Below are positions 1,228 through 10,550 of a stretch of DNA of 10,686 bases, one piece after another. Origin of the DNA: Promethearchaeota archaeon (GTDB lineage Archaea > Asgardarchaeota > Lokiarchaeia > Sigyniarchaeales > SOKP01); NCBI GenBank assembly GCA_048941015.1, contig JBHLNZ010000084.1:1-10686 (forward strand). Reading direction: 5' to 3'. Position numbers and translations under genes: made by a program. The notes under the pieces are model-generated. The model had not been told where the DNA came from. It was given only the letters and a program-made list of their open reading frames with translations, and made no database searches. Numbering within the stretch: position 1 is the first letter of the stretch; the number at the start of each line of letters is the position of its first letter.

Positions 1228-1300
1228 GCTATTAGAAAAAAATTAATTAATAATTAAAAACTTGTGAATAAATCTCATCTATAAAAAATTGACCATAACT

Positions 1301-3121
1301 TCACTCTTTTGAATATTTTCCAAATTGAGGAAAAGATTTCAATTGCGTGGAATCAAATATTGGTCCTTCTTTACAGACTGTGATATTATTTTTCTCTCCG
1401 ATGCAACATGATCCACATAGACCTACACCACACTTCATCTTTCTCTCTAAACTTGCTTGAATTTCAATATTATTAGAGTTTGCTATTTCTAGGACCCGCT
1501 TCATCATAACTTCGGGTCCACATGTTAAAATTAAGTCTATTTTTTCTTTTTTGATGATATCTTCAATAGTATCTGTAACAAAGCATTTCTTACCAACAGA
1601 ACCATCATCAGTAGTACAAAGTGTATTAGGGATTAGATCTATCAGTCTATCGGAAAAAATTAAAGAGGGTTCATCCTTTGCACCTATCGCTATAAAAACA
1701 TTTTTTTTATTTTTCTTTAATGGTTCAATTAAAGATGTTAATGCGGCGATTCCCATGCCTCCTCCAACAATAAGTATATTTTCAGCATCTTCATAGTTCC
1801 ATGTATTTCCATAAGGGCCTCTAATTCCGATCAAATCTCCTTGAACCAAATCAAATAACTTAGAAGTCCCTTCTCCAATTCTCTCAACTGTAATTTCGAT
1901 CAAATTTCCATCAATTTTAGATATTGACATTGGTAAGAAGTCAATATCTAGTAACCATAAAATAACAAACATACCTGGCTTGTAAGCTTTGGCGATTCTT
2001 TGATTTCGAATAAAGAAGCTCTTTATTTTAGGTGAGTGTTCTATTACAGACTCAATTTTTACGATATCTGTCTTAGTTCTTGTAAGATCTAAGATAAGTT
2101 CCTCATCATCTTTATCAAGAGATTTTGCTGTGATAATTTCTTTTTCAATTGCTAATTCAAAGACTTTTTTACCTCTTTCAGTTCTTATTATAGTTGTATC
2201 CCATCCTATCTCACTTCCAAAATTACCAACTGAAATGTCTGCAAAAGATGCAGTGTAATCTGAACATGAGAAGCAAGCTTTTCTAATAGCATTGTCATAC
2301 AAATAATTCAATGGTATTTCTTTAACTAAAGAGTTTGTTCTGATTTTTAAAGTGAAGTTGTTTTTATCGGTATCGATTTGTTCAATTTCACTATCTTTAA
2401 TACCATTCTTGAGAAAGATCTCACTTAGAATCTTGTTGTAATAAGTGCCTGTGCAAAAGGTTCCAATTGCTAAAGTAACTAAATCATATGCTTCATAATC
2501 GAAAGTTGGATGAGTTTGCAACTTTCTTAACGCTTGAATTTGACATGGGGTCCCAACGACAGCAATGTCACTATGCTCTTTATTGATCGCCTCACCTATA
2601 AGAGAAATAGTTGGAGATTGACTTGGCTTATAACCAACTCCTTTTAAAAGATCTTTTGGACTTTCAGCGATTATAGGAATAGGCTTAAAATCCCCATCTT
2701 TATCTGTAATAATTGAGGCATCTATCAAACCATTTTCCATCGCTACATATAATAAAGCTGTTAAAGGACCTGCATTTGAAGGGAACTTTCCTAATGCTTT
2801 CTCAGTTAGTTTTACAGACTTTATATCGATATAGTGTCCTAAAATCCTTTCACTTCTTATACCAAAGACCCATTTATCTAATAAGGATATTGGTATTAGA
2901 TCTATTTCAGTTTTAGGACAAAGATTATAGCAAAGACCATATCCATCTCGACAAGTATTCATATCTTTACAAGATCCATCCTCAATTGGGACTTCTTTTT
3001 CTCTATCGAATTTTATATTAGCACAAAAAGCCCCACATGCTCCACAATAAACACATTTTCCTGTTTGAATGACTTCTTCATATAATTCTTGCCATCCTTT
3101 CTTAATCTTTTGAATAAACAT
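1301..3121 (-). CDS. Fusion protein: N-terminal ferredoxin + FrhB/FdhB (F420-reducing hydrogenase beta-like) domain, C-terminal PyrK-like FAD/NAD(P)/2Fe-2S (dihydroorotate dehydrogenase electron-transfer subunit-like) domain
   Basis: N-terminus has CVYCGACGAFC and C-x5-C-x6-C-x3-CP. FrhB motifs: LTALLYVAMENGLIDA, VGTPCQIQALRK, IGTFC, CFSCSDYTASFADISVG. PyrK motifs: PGMFV, PMSIS, GIRGPYGN, VGGGMG, CGPEVMM, ERKMKCGVGLCGSC...VCKEGPIF. The track's GTG start at 3133 lies inside an AGGTGA RBS, so ATG 3121 (1 nt after the upstream TGA) is the more likely start. Confidence 0.9.
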   Translation of the reverse strand: MFIQKIKKGWQELYEEVIQTGKCVYCGACGAFCANIKFDREKEVPIEDGSCKDMNTCRDGYGLCYNLCPKTEIDLIPISLLDKWVFGIRSERILGHYIDIKSVKLTEKALGKFPSNAGPLTALLYVAMENGLIDASIITDKDGDFKPIPIIAESPKDLLKGVGYKPSQSPTISLIGEAINKEHSDIAVVGTPCQIQALRKLQTHPTFDYEAYDLVTLAIGTFCTGTYYNKILSEIFLKNGIKDSEIEQIDTDKNNFTLKIRTNSLVKEIPLNYLYDNAIRKACFSCSDYTASFADISVGNFGSEIGWDTTIIRTERGKKVFELAIEKEIITAKSLDKDDEELILDLTRTKTDIVKIESVIEHSPKIKSFFIRNQRIAKAYKPGMFVILWLLDIDFLPMSISKIDGNLIEITVERIGEGTSKLFDLVQGDLIGIRGPYGNTWNYEDAENILIVGGGMGIAALTSLIEPLKKNKKNVFIAIGAKDEPSLIFSDRLIDLIPNTLCTTDDGSVGKKCFVTDTIEDIIKKEKIDLILTCGPEVMMKRVLEIANSNNIEIQASLERKMKCGVGLCGSCCIGEKNNITVCKEGPIFDSTQLKSFPQFGKYSKE

Positions 3122-3122
3122 C

Positions 3123-3719
3123 TCAATTTTCACCTTTTTCTAGCTTTTTTATAAATTCCAAGCCTTCTTGCCTACCAAGTTCAAATGCTTCAAGATTTTT
3201 GTCAATAGTCGACTTTGGTACAAAATTTTTAACAGTTTCAATTGCAGATTCTTCAGAAAAGATACCAGAAACTACTGTAAATATCCCAAATAGAATTGAA
3301 TTACCGAATACGATATTTCCAAATCTTTCAACTGCTAATTTTTGAATGGGAATCCCTAATGCTTTCTTTATTCTTTTTGCGGCCCTAAATTTACTAATCG
3401 TTGAGGTATCCCAGATTAGAAACCCAGTACCATTTTCTTTTATGAAGTTTGGTTTAACGTCACTAGCGGCTTCTTCAGATAAAATAATTAAAAAATCATA
3501 CGGTTGTAAGGCTTTTGGATAATCAATTAAATCCAGATTCTTATCTAACTCAATTACCACTTCTGCCCAGCATTTTCCCCCCCGAGCGGATGCCGAATAA
3601 GCTTCTGTTTGAGTAGCAGCCAAATTTTCATACAATGAGCTTGCGGTTATAATCATTTTACTAAGAGTAATAACCCCCTGGCCTCCATATCCGGCAATTC
3701 TAACTTCATAACGAGCCAA
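3123..3719 (-). CDS. korC: 2-oxoacid:ferredoxin oxidoreductase gamma subunit
   Basis: VRIAGYGGQGV, AYSASARGG and KNLEAFELG motifs; located in the OFOR operon; TTG start. The symbol is family-level and the substrate is uncertain. Confidence 0.9.
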   Translation of the reverse strand: MARYEVRIAGYGGQGVITLSKMIITASSLYENLAATQTEAYSASARGGKCWAEVVIELDKNLDLIDYPKALQPYDFLIILSEEAASDVKPNFIKENGTGFLIWDTSTISKFRAAKRIKKALGIPIQKLAVERFGNIVFGNSILFGIFTVVSGIFSEESAIETVKNFVPKSTIDKNLEAFELGRQEGLEFIKKLEKGEN

Positions 3720-3722
3720 GTT

Positions 3723-4640
3723 TTATTTTCCCCCCATTGCTATCTTTTGAATTTTAGCATATTCGTCTGAATATTCCGGTTTATTCGGTTCATATCTAAA
3801 TTCACCAATAACATATTTGTTAAACAATTCCTCTTCTGTCATAAATTTTGCTTGATTTATTCTAACTGTATTTCTTTTGATCCAATCTAACATTTTTAAT
3901 CCCTGATCCATTTTGGCTCCTTCTACACCAAGATTTTCAGCACCAAGACTGTCTAAGTTTTTCCGCCCAAAATAAGTAACACAAGGGGTTATTACTTCAA
4001 TTACTGAAGTTCCTTTATGCTTTAAAGCTTTTTTGAAATATTTAATATAAGTACGAGGATGTGCTACTGTAGTCCTTGCAACATAGGTAGCTCCTGCAGC
4101 TAAAGCTAAATTTACCCCATCAATTCTATTTTCAAACATTTTATAAGGAGTTGTTGTACTACTTGCACCATAGAGAGTAGTAGGAGCTCCTTGCCCTCCT
4201 GTCATAGCATAAATGCTGTTATTAAAAATAAAAAGGACACAATCTAAATTTCTTCGGCAAAGGTGTATAAAATGATTTCCTCCTATTCCAAGACAATCAC
4301 CATCCCCAGAAAAGATTATTGGCTTCATTTTAGGGTTTGCTAATTTTATTCCAGTCGCAACTGGAGGAGCTCGGCCATGAAGGGATAATATTTTTTGTGA
4401 TTTAGCATGTACATTCAATAAAATTTGGCTATAACAACCAATGCCTATTATTGTTGGAAATAAATGAGGATCTAATCCTTCATCTTCAAAAATTCGTGTA
4501 AATATTTGACCAATAATACCATATCCACAACCTGAGCAAAACATTGTGGAAAAATTACCAAATATACTACCAGCATAGGATACCATAACATAAGGATGCT
4601 CTGGTTTTTCATTTGGAACCATTCTTCCAATATCTGACAT
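3723..4640 (-). CDS. korB: 2-oxoacid:ferredoxin oxidoreductase beta subunit (TPP- and 4Fe-4S-binding)
   Basis: FCSGCG, GIGC, LHGR, GDGD...IGGNHFIH..RRN...NNSIYAMTGGQ (TPP motif) and TPCVTYFG. TAATG stop/start overlap with the alpha gene, GGAGG RBS upstream. Confidence 0.93.
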   Translation of the reverse strand: MSDIGRMVPNEKPEHPYVMVSYAGSIFGNFSTMFCSGCGYGIIGQIFTRIFEDEGLDPHLFPTIIGIGCYSQILLNVHAKSQKILSLHGRAPPVATGIKLANPKMKPIIFSGDGDCLGIGGNHFIHLCRRNLDCVLFIFNNSIYAMTGGQGAPTTLYGASSTTTPYKMFENRIDGVNLALAAGATYVARTTVAHPRTYIKYFKKALKHKGTSVIEVITPCVTYFGRKNLDSLGAENLGVEGAKMDQGLKMLDWIKRNTVRINQAKFMTEEELFNKYVIGEFRYEPNKPEYSDEYAKIQKIAMGGK

Positions 4641-5815
4641 TATTTTGCTACCTCCCTAATTGCATTCAATATCTCATCAGGGTGATGAAACACTCCTACC
4701 TTTGGTATCTTAATGATTGGCATCCCTAGTTTTGAAACTCTTTCAACTTGTTCAGCTATAATGCCAGTATAATTTAGTTCAGGTACAATAATTGCCTTAG
4801 CATCCTTTACAGCCTCTTTTACAATCGCATCAGGAAAAGGCCATACAGTTACAAGCCTTAAAATTCCTACTTTAATACCTTCATCACGAGCAAGATCAAC
4901 AGCACGATAACTTGCTCTTATTGGCAAACCATAACCAACAACTACTATTTCAGCATCCTCAAGCTTATACTTTTCAGTAATACAGATTTTATCTTTATTG
5001 CTATTGATTTTTTCTACTAATACTTCCATAAATTGCGTTAGTTTAGGTGAAGGTAATCCTTCATAATTATGAGCCATATGCAAAAATATTCCAGGGCAAT
5101 AATCAGTACCTATAACTGGGGGTTTTGGAATAATATATTTTCCACTTATGTCATCTTTATAAGAGAATTTCTTGATGAAATCTTCAGGTAACTCTCTTTT
5201 AACAATTCTTTTCAAAATTTCTTCTTTTGGAGGTATATTTACTATTTCATGTAGATGACCTAAATACGCATCAGACAGGATAAACACTGGACAACGATAA
5301 ATCTCTGCGAAATTAAATGCGGTTATGGTTAAATCAAACAATTCTTGGCAATTCATTGGTGCAATTGCTATAACTTGAAATTCTCCATGCCCAGAGAAAC
5401 GTACCAATCCAATATCATTGTGATGCGGTTCAGTTACAGGTCCAGCACTTCCTGGACCAGCTCGCTGAACATCACAAAAAACAAATGGTATTTCTAAATT
5501 TGCAGCCATTGATATTGTTTCTACCATTAAAGACAAGCCAGGACCTGAAGTAGCTGTCATTGCTTTTGCACCTGTCAATGAAGCTCCAATTACAGAATTT
5601 ATCGAAGCTAATTCATCTTCCATCTGCATACAAACCCCTCCAACCTCAGGTAATCTTATAGCTAGATGTTCAATTACTTCTGTACTAGGTGTAATTGGAT
5701 ATCCACCAAAATACGATAAACCAGCAGAAAGAGCACCCTCGGACATAGCAACATTGCCCATCATTAAATGTCTACCTGGTTTTAAAAACCTTTTACCATT
5801 TACATTACTCAACAT
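4640..5815 (-). CDS. korA: 2-oxoacid:ferredoxin oxidoreductase alpha subunit
   Basis: MMGNVA, GYPITPSTE, QMEDE, TATSGPG and VWPFP motifs. The track's GTG at 5821 lies within the GAGGTGA RBS (5824-5818), so the true start is likely ATG 5815 or TTG 5812. Confidence 0.93.
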   Translation of the reverse strand: MLSNVNGKRFLKPGRHLMMGNVAMSEGALSAGLSYFGGYPITPSTEVIEHLAIRLPEVGGVCMQMEDELASINSVIGASLTGAKAMTATSGPGLSLMVETISMAANLEIPFVFCDVQRAGPGSAGPVTEPHHNDIGLVRFSGHGEFQVIAIAPMNCQELFDLTITAFNFAEIYRCPVFILSDAYLGHLHEIVNIPPKEEILKRIVKRELPEDFIKKFSYKDDISGKYIIPKPPVIGTDYCPGIFLHMAHNYEGLPSPKLTQFMEVLVEKINSNKDKICITEKYKLEDAEIVVVGYGLPIRASYRAVDLARDEGIKVGILRLVTVWPFPDAIVKEAVKDAKAIIVPELNYTGIIAEQVERVSKLGMPIIKIPKVGVFHHPDEILNAIREVAK

Positions 5816-5825
5816 ATTCACCTCT

Positions 5826-6107
5826 TTAAGTTTCCGCTTTTTCAGCCAATTTTTCTTGTTCTTTTTCTAATACATAAATACACCATTCTGGGCAAGCAAA
5901 CTCGCATCTTCGACATCCTGTACAATATTTTTCTTTCCCTTGTTTAACTCGTGGTAAGTAAGCAACTCTCATATTTAATTCATCTCCCGGCTCCAAAATA
6001 CCTGTAGGACAAACTGCAATACAATTGTAGCATTCATTTCCACCGCATCTGTTTTTATTTAAAAATAAAGTGAATTTTTTCTCTTTATTTTCTATTAAAT
6101 TTGGTAT
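5826..6107 (-). CDS. korD: 2-oxoacid:ferredoxin oxidoreductase delta subunit (2x[4Fe-4S] ferredoxin), 93 aa; not in ORF track
   Basis: Manual translation: (I/M)PNLIENKEKKFTLFLNKNRCGGNECYNCIAVCPTGILEPGDELNMRVAYLPRVKQGKEKYCTGCRRCEFACPEWCIYVLEKEQEKLAEKAET, ending at TAA 5828-5826. Two ferredoxin Cys clusters, in the canonical delta position upstream of alpha. No ATG/GTG/TTG precedes the first Cys cluster; putative ATA start at 6107. Confidence 0.88.
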   Translation of the reverse strand: MPNLIENKEKKFTLFLNKNRCGGNECYNCIAVCPTGILEPGDELNMRVAYLPRVKQGKEKYCTGCRRCEFACPEWCIYVLEKEQEKLAEKAET

Positions 6108-6266: not shown

Positions 6267-7487
6267 TTGGAAAATGCTTGGTTAAATGCTTGGATCTCCA
6301 TGAAAATGGGTAAAGATCAGAAATGGTGGAGTTGGGATTGGAATTTTAAAGAATCGGTAAGAAATCAGATGAATTTGCCTGAAAAGATTATAATTAAAGA
6401 TGATACATTGAGAGAAGGGGAAGAAACTCCTGGTTCATATTTTACCATAAATCAAAAAGTAGAAATCGCAAAACTTTTAGAAGAAATGGGTATTCCAGAA
6501 TTAGAAGTAGGATATGCTGCGGGAATTAAAGAACATGCTGACACTTTTAAAGAATTGAAGAGAGAGGGAATTAAAGCGAAATTATCATCACATGCACGAT
6601 TATATGCCAAAGATATAAAGAAAGAAGTAGATGATATCCTTGCAGCGGGGGCGGATCATATCAACTTTTTATTAGTTCCTGACCCTATATTGAATTCTAA
6701 GAAAGCTGTTTTTGAAAGAATATCTCATGGAATACAATATGCAAAGGATGAAGGTGCGTATGTCGCCTTTGGATCTGGTAGAGTATTACCTAAATATTGG
6801 GAGAAATTCTGTAGTTTAGCAATAGAAGCAGGGGTTGATAGGATAGTTTGTTATGACGGAAATGGATGTGCTCATCCTACAGCATTTAGGGATAATGTTG
6901 CATTTACCAAAAAAGTAGTTGAGAAAGTTCCAATAGAGGTTCATACCCATAACGATCTAGGATTAGCTTGCGCTACAACTCTTGCAGGTGTTGAAGGTGG
7001 AGCAGAAGTTGTTGATGTAGTTTTTAATGGGCTAGGCGATAGAGCAGGTAATGCAGCTACAGAAGAAGTAATAATGGCTCTTGAAATCTTATATGGGATA
7101 GACACAGGCATAAAATTAGAAAAAATAACAGAGGTATCTAAAATCATTGAGAAATATAGTAAAACTCCACTTCAAGCACATAAAGCAATAGTTGGAAAAA
7201 ATTGCTTTATTCATGAATCAGATTTACATGTTGAGCAGATTCTTATTGGTAATTGGATAACATGGGAGCTTTATCAACCTCAAGTTGTTGGACAAACAAG
7301 AAAGTTAATCTTTGGAGCTACAACTTTACAAAATAGAGCTCTTATAGCAAAATTGTCAAAAATGGGGTTAAATCCAACAAAAGTTCATATTGAAACTATT
7401 AGGAAAAAGATACAAGAGAAAACAAAGGTTAATCAATTCATTACAGAAAAAGAGCTTGAAAAAATAGCTAATGAAATTGTAAAATAA
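6267..7487 (+). CDS. DRE-TIM metallolyase, LeuA/AksA/CimA-like (homocitrate/2-isopropylmalate/citramalate synthase family), divergent, no C-terminal regulatory domain
   Basis: DDTLREGEETPG, ELEVG, HTHNDLG (metal ligands), NGLGDRAGNAATEEV and KAIVGKNCFIHES; 406 aa. AGGTGA RBS lies 6 nt before the TTG start. Confidence 0.88.
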   Translation: MENAWLNAWISMKMGKDQKWWSWDWNFKESVRNQMNLPEKIIIKDDTLREGEETPGSYFTINQKVEIAKLLEEMGIPELEVGYAAGIKEHADTFKELKREGIKAKLSSHARLYAKDIKKEVDDILAAGADHINFLLVPDPILNSKKAVFERISHGIQYAKDEGAYVAFGSGRVLPKYWEKFCSLAIEAGVDRIVCYDGNGCAHPTAFRDNVAFTKKVVEKVPIEVHTHNDLGLACATTLAGVEGGAEVVDVVFNGLGDRAGNAATEEVIMALEILYGIDTGIKLEKITEVSKIIEKYSKTPLQAHKAIVGKNCFIHESDLHVEQILIGNWITWELYQPQVVGQTRKLIFGATTLQNRALIAKLSKMGLNPTKVHIETIRKKIQEKTKVNQFITEKELEKIANEIVK

Positions 7488-7498
7488 AACCCTTCGAT

Positions 7499-8683
7499 TT
7501 AACTTAATTTTTTATATTCTTCTAAAATTTTATGTGCAACATCACCAGTAGTCCCAAATTTTCCTTCCTTCCGATAATTTGGCGGAACTGCGTCTTTAGG
7601 TAAATAACTCCAACTTTTTTCTATATTTAATCCACCAATAATTGTTTTTTCAATAGCTTTCATCAATCCTTTCGATTCTTTCTCATAACCTAAATAATCA
7701 AGCATCATTGTTGCTGAGATTATAGTCCCAATAGGATTTGCGATCTTTTCGCCTGCAATATCAGGAGCAGAGCCATGAGTTGGTTCAAAATACGGAATAT
7801 TTAGTCCATATACTCCTGATCCTGCTATTCCTAGTCCTCCTACTATTTGTGCTGCTTCATCAGATAAGATATCACCCATCATATTAGGTATAACAATAGT
7901 ATCATGGTAATCTGGAAATCTAATCAATCTAGCAGCAAAATCATCTACAATATATGTTTCTACTTGAAGTTCGGGATATTCCTTTTTAACTATCTCTTTA
8001 ATTCTTTTTATAAACATTCCATCTTGTTGACGAAAAATATTCGGTTTACATACGATTTCAAGCAAACCCTTTCCGATTCCTTCATCTTTACGCTTTATAC
8101 ATACTTCACAAGCCACTCGTCCTACTCTGTCTGTTGCTCTAGGAGATACTACTCTGAAACTATATATAGCATCCTCAGTCCATCTTTCTATATCTGGTTT
8201 ATAAATCAATCCTTTTTTGATTAATTTCGTTAATTTTCCTTCCTTGCCCGTAGCAGCATAGCATCCTTCTGTACATTCTCTTATAAAAATGTAATCAATA
8301 TTATCAACTAAATCTTGTTTTAGATTAGTATACATTCCTTTAAAATATTTTATAGGCCTTATATTGGCAAAATTACCTAACCCCCATCGTAAATATGCTA
8401 TAACTTGTACTGCAGATTCATGAGTTGCGCCAAATAAAACAGCGTCAGAATTATCAACTGCCTCTTTTGTTTCTGGTGGAAATGCGTTACCATAAGTTTC
8501 TATAGCACTTTCTCCGCATGGCATTATTTTTATTTCTAAATCACTAATATTCATTCCTTCTAATATAAAAACAGTCGCATTTACTACTTCAGGGCCTATT
8601 CCATCCCCCCCAAGTGCTATTACCTTTTTTAGCGATTTATTAATTTTAGGACTTTTTAAAATATTTCGACGTTCATTTTCCAT
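7499..8683 (-). CDS. leuB: Isocitrate/isopropylmalate (beta-decarboxylating) dehydrogenase family, archaeal LeuB/AksF-like
   Basis: GDGIGPEV, LFGA, LR...FANIRP, RECTEGCY, KPN, NMMGDILSDEAAQIVGGLG and FEPTHGSAPDIAG..IANP. The symbol is family-level only. Confidence 0.9.
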   Translation of the reverse strand: MENERRNILKSPKINKSLKKVIALGGDGIGPEVVNATVFILEGMNISDLEIKIMPCGESAIETYGNAFPPETKEAVDNSDAVLFGATHESAVQVIAYLRWGLGNFANIRPIKYFKGMYTNLKQDLVDNIDYIFIRECTEGCYAATGKEGKLTKLIKKGLIYKPDIERWTEDAIYSFRVVSPRATDRVGRVACEVCIKRKDEGIGKGLLEIVCKPNIFRQQDGMFIKRIKEIVKKEYPELQVETYIVDDFAARLIRFPDYHDTIVIPNMMGDILSDEAAQIVGGLGIAGSGVYGLNIPYFEPTHGSAPDIAGEKIANPIGTIISATMMLDYLGYEKESKGLMKAIEKTIIGGLNIEKSWSYLPKDAVPPNYRKEGKFGTTGDVAHKILEEYKKLS

Positions 8684-8734
8684 AAAATCAATTCTCTTTT
8701 TATTTTTCTTTAGATTTTAATAAAAACTTTAAAG

Positions 8735-9271
8735 TTAATCTGCCTCTTCTTTTAGCTCGGAAAGAAGCACTTCAATCAAACCTTTTTTCTTTAAAATTTT
8801 AAGTAAAATTGGATGAATTGCTTTTCCTTTAAATGTCTCACCAGATTTTAAATTTTTAACTTCTGCTTTAGGTATATTTAATTCAACCACATCTCCTGTT
8901 TGAAATTGTTTTGAAATATTTTCTATTTCAATAACTGGAAGTCCTCGAGCAATTGAGGAACGATAGAATATACGAGCAAAGCTCTCAGAAATAATTGCAA
9001 CTATTCCCTTCTCCTGTAGTATTGCTGGAGCTGTTTCTCTACTTGAACCACATCCAAAGTTCCTACCAGCGATAATAATGTCCCCCTCTTTTACTTTCAT
9101 GGGAAATTCTTTAATTATTGTTTCACAGGTATGCGTTAATGTTGCCTCTAAATCATCTAAATATTGACCTGGAGATATAGCATCAGTATCTACATTATCT
9201 GGAAATAGCCAAACGTTTCCCTTTATAATATCTTCATAATCTTTAATAGGTTTTTTACTTACTATTGCCAT
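8735..9271 (-). CDS. leuD: 3-isopropylmalate dehydratase / homoaconitase small subunit
   Basis: DNVDTDAISPG, AGRNFGCGSSRE and SFARIFYR motifs; GAGGTGA RBS 4 nt before ATG. The symbol is family-level only. Confidence 0.92.
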   Translation of the reverse strand: MAIVSKKPIKDYEDIIKGNVWLFPDNVDTDAISPGQYLDDLEATLTHTCETIIKEFPMKVKEGDIIIAGRNFGCGSSRETAPAILQEKGIVAIISESFARIFYRSSIARGLPVIEIENISKQFQTGDVVELNIPKAEVKNLKSGETFKGKAIHPILLKILKKKGLIEVLLSELKEEAD

Positions 9272-9281
9272 TTAATCACCT

Positions 9282-10550
9282 CTAAAACTCTCTTGGGTCT
9301 GTTATTTCGCCATTTAAGGCAGAAGCCGCTACTGTAGCTGGAGATCCAAGATATATTTCAGCAGCATTGCTTCCCATCCTACCCTGAAAATTTCTATTCG
9401 AACTCGATATGCATTTCTCACTAGGAGCAAGTAATCCGCCATGTGCCCCAAAACAAGCACCACAATTCGGATTTGTTATTATTCCACCTGCTTTGATTAG
9501 TTTCTCAGCTACACCCGATTTCGCAGCTTTTAACCAAGTTTCTTGCGATGCGGGAGTTATTATCATTCTTACATTGGGGTGTATTTTTTTTCCATCTATA
9601 ATTTTCGCTGCAATTTCTAAGTCTTCAAATCTTCCATTTGTACAGGATCCTAAAAATGCTTGGTTTATTTTTGTTCCTGCAACCTCGGATACAGGTTTAA
9701 CATTATCTATCGTATGTGGACATGAAACTTGAGGCTCTAAATCATTAACTTCTATTTCATATCTTTTTTCATAATTTGCATCTTCATCTGGTTTAATTAA
9801 TTCAAGTGAATTTTTTGTTCGATCTTTTAACCAATTAATTATCTTCTGATCGGGAATTCCAAAAGCAAATTTAGCCCCTAATTCTAATGCAAAATTAGAC
9901 ATAGTCATCCGAGATGCTATAGTTAAACTTTCCATAGTATTTCCAGAAAATTCAATTGATTTATATCTAGCTACCTCTGAAGTATAATCTCCTGCAATCT
10001 TAATTATTATATCTTTACTCATAACATTGTATGGTAATTTGCCATTAATCTCAAATTTGATTGATTGGGGAATTCTAAACCATAATTTTCCAGTCACATA
10101 AGCATAAAACAGATCTGTATTACCAACTCCACAACCAGCTGCATTAAAAGCTCCATAAGTTGTAGTATGACTATCTCCTCCAATTATAAGCATCCCAGGC
10201 TTAACAAAACCTTTTTCTGGTAAAACTTGATGACATATACCTTCTCTAATGTCATAAAAGTTTTTAATTCCTTGTTTTTTCACAAATTTACGGATAAGAT
10301 CATGAACCGCTGCCCACTTTTCTGTTGGCGCTGGAGCATAGTGATCAAATAGAACGACAATTTTGTTCGGATCAAAAACTTTTCTCTTCTTTGGTGGACG
10401 TATCTTTTGAAAATCTAAAAAGACTTTTGCGGTTCCAATATGACTCATTATTAAATCGACATTGGCAAAAATAATATCATTTATTTTCACATCTTTCCCA
10501 GATAAGGAATGAGATCCAAGTATTTTTTCAGCAATCGTTTTTCCACTCAA
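9282..10550 (-). CDS. leuC: 3-isopropylmalate dehydratase / homoaconitase large subunit (4Fe-4S)
   Basis: GKTIAEKIL, FDH, GICHQV, GDSHTTTYGA, FLGSCTNGR, PNCGACFG, SNRNFQGRMG and YLGSPATVAASA; all three cluster Cys present; TTG start. The symbol is family-level only. Confidence 0.94.
   Translation of the reverse strand: MSGKTIAEKILGSHSLSGKDVKINDIIFANVDLIMSHIGTAKVFLDFQKIRPPKKRKVFDPNKIVVLFDHYAPAPTEKWAAVHDLIRKFVKKQGIKNFYDIREGICHQVLPEKGFVKPGMLIIGGDSHTTTYGAFNAAGCGVGNTDLFYAYVTGKLWFRIPQSIKFEINGKLPYNVMSKDIIIKIAGDYTSEVARYKSIEFSGNTMESLTIASRMTMSNFALELGAKFAFGIPDQKIINWLKDRTKNSLELIKPDEDANYEKRYEIEVNDLEPQVSCPHTIDNVKPVSEVAGTKINQAFLGSCTNGRFEDLEIAAKIIDGKKIHPNVRMIITPASQETWLKAAKSGVAEKLIKAGGIITNPNCGACFGAHGGLLAPSEKCISSSNRNFQGRMGSNAAEIYLGSPATVAASALNGEITDPREF

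Follow-up and report, generated by a model that had tools for sequence, protein, structure and literature searches.

In the Asgard archaeon Promethearchaeota archaeon (assembly GCA_048941015.1), positions 1 to 10,686 of contig JBHLNZ010000084.1, called the window below, carry an operon for a four-subunit 2-oxoacid:ferredoxin oxidoreductase (OFOR) whose genes are followed by one in which a ferredoxin domain, an FrhB-like domain and a PyrK-like domain are fused into a single polypeptide. This fusion is lineage-restricted, uncharacterised and systematically misannotated. We argue, from its sequence and by analogy with related adaptor proteins, that it could be a fifth OFOR subunit that combines an Fe-S wire with an NAD(P)+ reductase and so makes the enzyme a 2-oxoacid:NAD(P)+ oxidoreductase, a reading that we hold with moderate confidence.

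In the fermentations of amino acids and 2-oxoacids that have been ascribed to Asgard archaea, which are the closest prokaryotic relatives of eukaryotes, OFORs are the main electron exit, and metabolic reconstructions assume that OFOR electrons go to ferredoxin. If our reading is true and a dedicated subunit sends these electrons to NAD(P)+ (or F420), the redox and energy balance predicted for the lineage would be different, and an F420-reductase module may have been reused as a plain Fe-S wire.

The minus-strand reading frame is uninterrupted over positions 1301-3133 of the window. Its stop codon occupies 1303-1301, and the likely start is the ATG at 3121, which is preceded by AAAGGTG and lies one nucleotide past the TGA (3125-3123) of the OFOR gamma-subunit gene. 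Four Pfam matches exceed the curated cut-offs, namely FrhB_FdhB_N (residues 117-175), FrhB_FdhB_C (185-337), NAD_binding_1 (452-543) and DHODB_Fe-S_bind (559-594), and the two that define the FrhB half score 41.5 bits (PF04422) and 130.9 bits (PF04432). All 118 full-length family members keep sixteen cluster cysteines unchanged, eight of them in the ferredoxin domain (4+4), four in the FrhB-like domain and four at the [2Fe-2S] site, from which three [4Fe-4S] clusters and one [2Fe-2S] cluster are predicted. The AlphaFold2 model of the fusion, built on an 86-sequence alignment, has a pLDDT of 90.2 and a pTM of 0.86. Since helix 337-348 of this model runs straight into strand 352-363, there is no linker at the junction, which lies around residue 350/351 (nucleotide ~2071); the pTM and the absent linker would fit a rigid single unit. 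A preliminary description of this DNA had reported an uninterrupted single-chain ferredoxin-FrhB-PyrK reading frame that starts 1 nt after the gamma stop, carries up to four Fe-S clusters and is joined near nucleotide 2070 without an obvious linker. Our results bear it out on each of these points and add the strand, which it had left unstated.

Comparison with solved structures assigned the two halves to different families. Residues 12-362 match best the zeta subunit of CO dehydrogenase (CODH; 8riu_B, E 2.7e-55) and FwdI (8rja_E, 3.2e-47), followed by FrhB and Fsr, while residues ~360-594 match NfnA (4ylf_A and 5jca_S, ~1e-32) and also PyrK and HydG. In Foldseek searches, the target-normalised TM-scores of the N-terminal half were 0.83 to 8riu_B and 0.82 to 8rja_E, with FrhB within 0.82-0.83, and those of the C-terminal half were 0.82-0.84 to NfnA and PyrK.

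The fusion is confined to one group of archaea. A search over 5.8 billion proteins listed 120 matches, 118 of them full-length (598-630 residues), with identities of 70-100%; among the matches listed, all named ones come from Asgard metagenome-assembled genomes (MAGs), and the label 'dihydroorotate dehydrogenase electron transfer subunit' is attached to every one. Clustering at 50% gave only a few fusion clusters, including P0125 and P0127, which are 43% and 36% identical to the window protein. In a phylum sample of 301 genomes, the fusion was present in 42 of the 68 that belong to the window's own GTDB family and in none of the 233 from 29 other families. A stop or misassembly at the junction, which the preliminary description had named as an outcome that would speak against the fusion, is ruled out, as the architecture, 602-626 residues long, is stop-free in more than 118 independent assemblies or full-length homologues. 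Split forms, with an FrhB-like gene and a PyrK-like gene after OFOR genes, were looked for and none was found; the nearest standalone FrhB-like proteins that we inspected (P0133, P0162 and P0141) are not OFOR-linked. In the literature, we found no paper with both 'FrhB' and 'PyrK', and neither papers on Asgard archaea or F420 nor the supplements to a survey of archaeal fusions (PMC11237513) yielded any mention of the fusion.

The coupling to the OFOR operon, also put forward earlier, is tight and holds almost without exception. Among 44 related loci, all those with enough upstream DNA show the order delta-alpha-beta-gamma-fusion with the sole exception of one, L047, and the delta-alpha-beta-gamma order is also kept for fusions that are only 36-43% identical. 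Five family genomes that lack the fusion and are 98-100% complete lack the close alpha orthologue too, their best match being 43% identical. The fusion and the close alpha are thus missing together, and the five genes are gained and lost as a single unit.

This co-inheritance bears on whether the fusion is an OFOR subunit at all, since it could be a free-standing ferredoxin:NAD(P)+ oxidoreductase that is merely co-transcribed and recycles OFOR-reduced ferredoxin without forming a stable subunit. In favour of such an enzyme, the operon keeps delta, through which electrons usually leave to ferredoxin; soluble ferredoxin could hand electrons to the ferredoxin domain at the N-terminus of the fusion, and L047 has the fusion and gamma without alpha and beta upstream. 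However, the strict co-inheritance with one OFOR, together with the finding of the fusion nowhere else, suits a dedicated subunit better, and the homologous adaptors zeta and FwdI are stably bound to their enzymes (PMC11493965). We consider a free-standing enzyme clearly unlikely.

Two of the related loci deserve a comment of their own. At L047 (L047:1-3811), a 1036-residue reading frame that is open where the contig begins, and whose product has a LAGLIDADG-like domain and acidic repeats, stands upstream of gamma and the fusion instead of alpha and beta; similarity of this protein to alpha or beta was looked for and not found. The locus could have arisen by insertion or rearrangement, or the MAG contig could be chimeric. 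L113 (WJJB01000448.1), a contig labelled 'Bathyarchaeota', carries a 36%-identical fusion cut by the contig end, in the delta-alpha-beta-gamma order, as well as an Arf/Ras/Roc small-GTPase gene. Possible reasons are a misnamed MAG and a transfer of the operon.

The C-terminal half is closely related to PyrK, which in dihydroorotate dehydrogenase (DHOD) B passes electrons to NAD+. It passes the NCBIfam PyrK equivalog model NF000796 with 262 bits against a cut-off of 224, and this match accounts for the wrong database label (PyrK or DHOD electron transfer subunit); more than 100 public records carry the wrong functional name, much as the preliminary description had expected. The FAD and NAD motifs of PyrK (PMSxS, RGPxGN, GGxGxA, TDDGS and CGPExM) are invariant or nearly so across the family. 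The nearest standalone relatives, at 38-50% identity, are PyrKs that lie beside pyrD in 23 of 38 loci and beside a GltD-like gene in none. In a maximum-likelihood tree, all fusion C-terminal halves form one clade (99/90) within the archaeal PyrK radiation, so that this half is, on the evidence of the tree, a recruited PyrK-type module that was acquired once. Derivation from the genome's own PyrK or from its Flx/HydG-like genes was considered and is unsupported, as these are 38% and 31% identical, respectively, and are not sisters of the fusion in the tree. Asp483, which directly follows strand beta2 of the NAD fold, is kept by all members of the main clade and corresponds to Thr or Ser in standalone PyrKs, which is a weak hint of NAD rather than NADP.

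That the fusion is a genuine PyrK of pyrimidine synthesis, as the public records and the passed NF000796 model would have it, has next to no probability. The genome has five DHODB_Fe-S_bind matches, and the one on contig C58 is a 284-residue pyrK directly beside the sole DHO_dh gene. No pyrD or hydrogenase gene was found in the window by Pfam, as had been noted before, and the upstream flank of the fusion in related loci consists of OFOR genes and never of pyrD, so that the homologues beside pyrD by which the preliminary description might have been overturned did not appear. The separate pyrK-pyrD pair on C58, the window without pyrD, the OFOR-linked loci and the 38% identity to the genome's own PyrK together rule out a role in pyrimidine synthesis.

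The FrhB-like half was compared with the flavin and F420 site of Frh. In the cryo-EM structure of Frh, the bent FAD lies near a conserved Lys75-Tyr76 loop, F420 is beside S209-V210 and also near the 163-IGKGK turn, and the [4Fe-4S] ligands of FrhB are Cys104/134/192/195 (PMC3591093). The [4Fe-4S] ligands of the FrhB-like half, Cys193/223/283/286, are invariant in the 118 fusions and in 27 standalone relatives. Zeta, FwdI and FrhB have the loop Tyr as well as the Q-[DN]-G-G motif, which forms the FAD pyrophosphate site at the N-terminus of a long helix; in the 27 standalone relatives, Gln is found in 96%, followed by Asp or Asn, and both glycines and the loop Tyr are found in 100%. The seven other FrhB paralogues of the genome that align well serve as a control from within, and these keep [Q/T]-[D/N]-G-G.

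In the window protein, the flavin motif is replaced by S-N-A-G-P at residues 115-119. Across the 118 fusions, the Gln site is occupied by S/I/A/M and the next site by E/N/K/D, at the 99th and 96th percentiles of variability, and the first Gly is Ala in 101 of the 118. The Lys-Tyr loop reads G-Y-K-P at residues 163-166, where Pro166 replaces the loop Tyr in all 118, and in divergent fusion clades the loop is RGTP or HATA. The equivalent of the IGKGK turn, of which the active zeta subunit also varies one Lys, is D-T-D-K-N-N-F, with sites at the 61st-99th percentiles, and nowhere does the protein vary more than over residues 231-270. The loss of Q-[DN]-G-G and of the Lys-Tyr loop, together with the variable IGKGK turn, makes an F420 site in the FrhB half doubtful. 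These substitutions suggest that the ancestral FAD/F420 pocket has been remodelled and that a standard F420 site is unlikely.

It is nevertheless conceivable that the enzyme is an F420-reducing OFOR, or a dual one using F420 and NAD(P), in which the FrhB half keeps FAD and reduces F420 like zeta and FwdI, and the PyrK half serves as a second outlet or inlet. The best solved matches are indeed F420-reducing adaptors (8riu_B, E 2.7e-55, and 8rja_E; TM 0.82-0.83), and FqoF-type proteins are among the nearest standalone relatives. The ADISVG loop, which is next to F420 in FrhB, is conserved in the fusions, and G-Y-K-P is invariant. The cof genes that the preliminary description had proposed to look for are present: the window genome encodes cofH (469 bits), cofE (269 bits) and, next to cofE, a CofD-family gene, and cofE is over its cut-off in 71/71 family genomes. 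A published genomic precedent is found in ANME-1, where FrhB6 is clustered with pyruvate:ferredoxin oxidoreductase (PMC9012536). Against this stand the motifs described above, whose Gln and Asp/Asn sites are among the most variable of the fusion while zeta, FwdI, FrhB and the 27 standalone relatives keep them, and the variable turn and beta-sheet at residues 231-270. Moreover, FrhB_FdhB_N scores only 41.5 bits versus 66-69 in two paralogues, and this domain is unrecorded for the divergent fusions. We regard F420 reduction as a somewhat unlikely, if serious, possibility.

We propose instead that the fusion carries electrons through its clusters to NAD(P)+. A 2-oxoacid would deliver its electrons to thiamine pyrophosphate (TPP) and the cluster of the beta subunit, from which they would pass to the two clusters of delta and then to the two clusters carried by the fusion's N-terminal ferredoxin domain, docking as zeta docks on CODH. 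The [4Fe-4S] cluster of the FrhB-like domain, acting mainly as an Fe-S wire and scaffold, would relay them to the [2Fe-2S] cluster and FAD of the PyrK-derived domain and finally to NAD(P)+, so that the complex would bypass free ferredoxin. The pocket of the FrhB-like half may or may not still hold a flavin. We infer the physical attachment to OFOR by analogy with zeta, and the path, with its direction of electron flow and its acceptor, from cofactor motifs and homologues. We consider F420 output or Nfn-like bifurcation less likely than an NAD(P)+ wire. The preliminary description had suggested that the fusion is the electron outlet of OFOR, which stands; its two flavin hydride-transfer sites, F420H2:NAD(P) transhydrogenase and bifurcation find no support in the FrhB half, where Q-[DN]-G-G and the Lys-Tyr loop are lost and the IGKGK turn is variable.

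Several observations weigh against an NAD(P)+ wire. A cofE gene is present in this organism and in each of the 71 family genomes sampled, and among solved structures the N-terminal half is closest to proteins for which F420 reduction has been proven by experiment (PMC11493965). G-Y-K-P, the ADISVG loop and G118 are strictly conserved, so that selection still acts on the pocket, in which a flavin may be bound. The delta subunit is kept, so free ferredoxin could still be served. In addition, passing electrons at -500 mV to NAD(P)+ would waste energy, which an energy-limited anaerobe might be expected to avoid.

In an Nfn-like scheme, F420(H2) would react with a central flavin of the FrhB half, from which one share of the electrons would enter the [2Fe-2S]/FAD/NAD branch and the other the [4Fe-4S]-OFOR branch of low potential; this could, for example, drive the reductive carboxylation of acyl-CoA. 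We find this scheme very unlikely. Judged from the sequence, there is only a slim chance that the five-subunit complex is an F420-dependent Nfn-like bifurcating or confurcating oxidoreductase that would catalyse 2-oxoacid + NADH + 2 F420 -> acyl-CoA + CO2 + NAD+ + 2 F420H2, or the reverse, and it is just as improbable that an F420-reactive flavin sits between the PyrK-type [2Fe-2S] cluster and the [4Fe-4S] chain. The cofactor set of the fusion does mirror that of NfnAB (FAD and [2Fe-2S]; flavin and [4Fe-4S] clusters), the C-terminal half matches the NfnA structures 4ylf_A and 5jca_S, and PyrK-type [2Fe-2S] clusters normally face a partner flavin, as in DHOD B and Nfn. The genome is moreover rich in bifurcation-type modules, including HdrA/MvhD/Flx-like clusters and an FrhB-GltD fusion. 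However, bifurcation depends on a central flavin/F420 site that is intact, and this site is preserved less well than any other part of the fusion; in addition, both the NCBIfam score and the tree make the C-terminal half PyrK-type rather than NfnA-type. If the Nfn-like scheme were true, the ferredoxin-, NAD- and F420-level redox pools would be linked in Asgard archaea.

Among known systems, the fusion most resembles CODH zeta and FwdI of Ca. Ethanoperedens thermophilum, which bind FAD, reduce F420 and are anchored through their ferredoxin domain to CODH or Fwd (Lemaire et al. 2024, PMC11493965; chain B of 8RIU and chain E of 8RJA). They share with the fusion a 2x[4Fe-4S] ferredoxin domain at the N-terminus and, after it, an FrhB-type domain that holds a single [4Fe-4S] cluster. 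Their genes likewise belong to operons of oxidoreductases that are normally linked to ferredoxin, and they provide the built-in electron outlet of these enzymes, a role that we propose for the fusion. Unlike the fusion, where these residues are replaced or variable, zeta and FwdI keep Q-N/D-G-G and the loop Tyr. The fusion also has a PyrK-type FAD/NAD/[2Fe-2S] domain in place of the short C-terminal dimerisation extension of zeta, and its partner enzyme is OFOR instead of CODH or Fwd.

The C-terminal half, for its part, shares with PyrK of DHOD B the equivalog model, all motifs, the four [2Fe-2S] cysteines and its place in the archaeal PyrK radiation, but differs in being joined to an FrhB-like module, in never lying beside pyrD and in having Asp483 in place of Thr or Ser. 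Like the fusion, NfnAB and the sulfhydrogenase HydG/HydB wire a PyrK-fold FAD and [2Fe-2S] unit to a [4Fe-4S]-carrying partner, and NfnA and HydG are close matches in structure (4ylf_A, 5jca_S and 9nf0_C). In contrast to them, Pfam found no GltD/NfnB-like or HydB-like partner within the fusion or elsewhere in the operon, the role of partner domain falls to an FrhB-like one, and a bifurcating central flavin as in NfnAB is unsupported by the motifs of the fusion.

OFORs with a built-in acceptor have precedents in other lineages. The phenylglyoxylate:NAD+ oxidoreductase PadEFGHI and the 2-oxoglutarate:NADP+ oxidoreductase of Azoarcus evansii are reportedly OFORs with built-in NAD(P)+ reduction, and the pyruvate:NADP+ oxidoreductase of Euglena and Cryptosporidium consists of a TPP/Fe-S OFOR core with an extra flavoprotein part that reduces NADP+. 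These enzymes share the function proposed here, an OFOR core with a flavoprotein part that reduces NAD(P)+ directly, and Pad subunit families exist in NCBIfam. To our knowledge, the extra flavoprotein parts of the Pad, Azoarcus and Euglena/Cryptosporidium enzymes have other folds, by which we set them apart from the fusion. If those folds differ, the fusion would be an independent solution to the built-in acceptor and, if our reading is true, a further way to build such an OFOR beside bacterial Pad, the NADP-dependent Kor and the eukaryotic pyruvate:NADP+ oxidoreductase. A further parallel is FrhB6 of ANME-1, whose genes cluster with pyruvate:ferredoxin oxidoreductase, from which a coupling of 2-oxoacid oxidation to a soluble hydride carrier was proposed on genomics only (PMC9012536, Chadwick et al. 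2022). Like the fusion, it is an FrhB-family gene in an OFOR cluster; it differs in belonging to another lineage and another OFOR type, and the text on FrhB6 in that paper names no PyrK fusion (PMC9012536).

Table 1. Coordinates of the fusion gene, its domains and the OFOR operon in the window.
Feature	Position	Strand	Content and evidence
Fusion gene	1301..3121	-	606 residues plus stop; ferredoxin, FrhB-like and PyrK-like domains; open frame, start context, Pfam, AlphaFold2
N-terminal ferredoxin domain (~residues 1-85)	2867..3121	-	Two [4Fe-4S] motifs, Cys23/26/29/33 and Cys51/57/64/68; aligns to 8riu_B residues 1-83
FrhB-like domain (~residues 93-350)	2072..2845	-	[4Fe-4S] Cys193/223/283/286; PF04422/PF04432; 8riu_B E 2.7e-55; Foldseek TM 0.83; motif comparison
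PyrK-like domain (residues 351-606)	1304..2071	-	FAD barrel, NAD(P)-binding fold, [2Fe-2S] Cys564/569/572/583; NF000796, PDB matches, Foldseek, motifs, tree
OFOR gamma subunit	3123..3719	-	PF01558; immediately precedes the fusion in all loci where DNA at that place is available
OFOR beta subunit (TPP-binding)	3723..4640	-	PF02775; NF007207 and TIGR02177 both below cut-offs
OFOR alpha subunit	4640..5821	-	PF01855 and PF17147; NF006412 393 bits vs cut-off 411; PDB 1yd7_A E 1e-77
OFOR delta subunit (2x[4Fe-4S] ferredoxin)	5826..6107	-	Two CxxCxxCxxxCP motifs; OorD NF007205
T-rich intergenic stretch, 73 nt	1228..1300	-	T6 and T7 runs read in the sequence, after the fusion stop

The genes upstream of the fusion (Table 1) encode a four-subunit OFOR of the Kor/Oor type, with a POR_N/PFOR_II alpha subunit, a TPP-binding beta subunit, a POR gamma subunit and a 2x[4Fe-4S] delta subunit in the order oorDABC. 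Their best NCBIfam matches (NF006412, NF007207, NF006323 and NF007205) all score under the equivalog cut-offs. The T-rich stretch that follows the fusion stop is likely to be the operon end and may, judging by its T runs, terminate transcription.

The delta subunit is 63-83% identical across related loci. Its gene has no ATG, GTG or TTG ahead of the first Cys motif, and the frame is open from an ATA at 6107; the listed reading frames of this region include only a TTG-started fragment of 56 residues. At L031 and L032, the delta gene was likewise uncalled, although tblastn finds delta in L031. These observations point to a non-canonical start codon or a systematic miss by gene calling.

On the other side of the operon, positions 6267-10550 of the window carry a LeuA/homocitrate-synthase-like gene on the plus strand, a gene of the LeuB/isocitrate-dehydrogenase family and genes for aconitase-family subunits of the LeuC/D type, none of which reaches its equivalog cut-off. 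Taken with the Kor-like OFOR, these neighbours look like an oxidative branch from citrate to succinyl-CoA or a set for 2-oxoacid elongation. In other genomes, the aconitase pair alone recurs beside the operon (upstream, in about nine loci), and the HMGL-like gene of the window is not conserved there.

Elsewhere in the genome, cofE (G000 C64:118861-119634) belongs to a reading frame that in most family genomes is open over ~470-480 residues, twice the 244 positions of the model, which suggests that CofE is fused to another domain; most family genomes also have a second, sub-threshold CofE-like copy. On contig C85 (G000 C85:18787-26695; L023:3788-11696), a three-gene cluster lies ~1 kb from a divergently oriented aldehyde:ferredoxin oxidoreductase gene. 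It encodes a NuoF-like protein of 602 residues, a NuoG/FdhA-like molybdopterin protein of 1102 residues with a C-terminal PyrK-type [2Fe-2S] domain, and a ferredoxin-FrhB-GltD/NfnB-like fusion of 910 residues, in which the FrhB part keeps Q-D-G-G. This cluster is a candidate F420-linked bifurcating complex.

There are also two Flx-Hdr-like clusters, at C3:48719-56941 and C84:9825-15962 (L024 and L025). The C3 cluster encodes MvhD, HdrA, MvhD, two Fe-S proteins (one of them Fer4_22/HydB-like) and a PyrK-like protein of the FlxA type, whereas at the start of the C84 cluster a CCG-domain protein takes the place of the first MvhD. A separate FrhB-like gene, of 370 residues, follows the C3 copy only, and the PyrK-like proteins of the two clusters are 84% identical.

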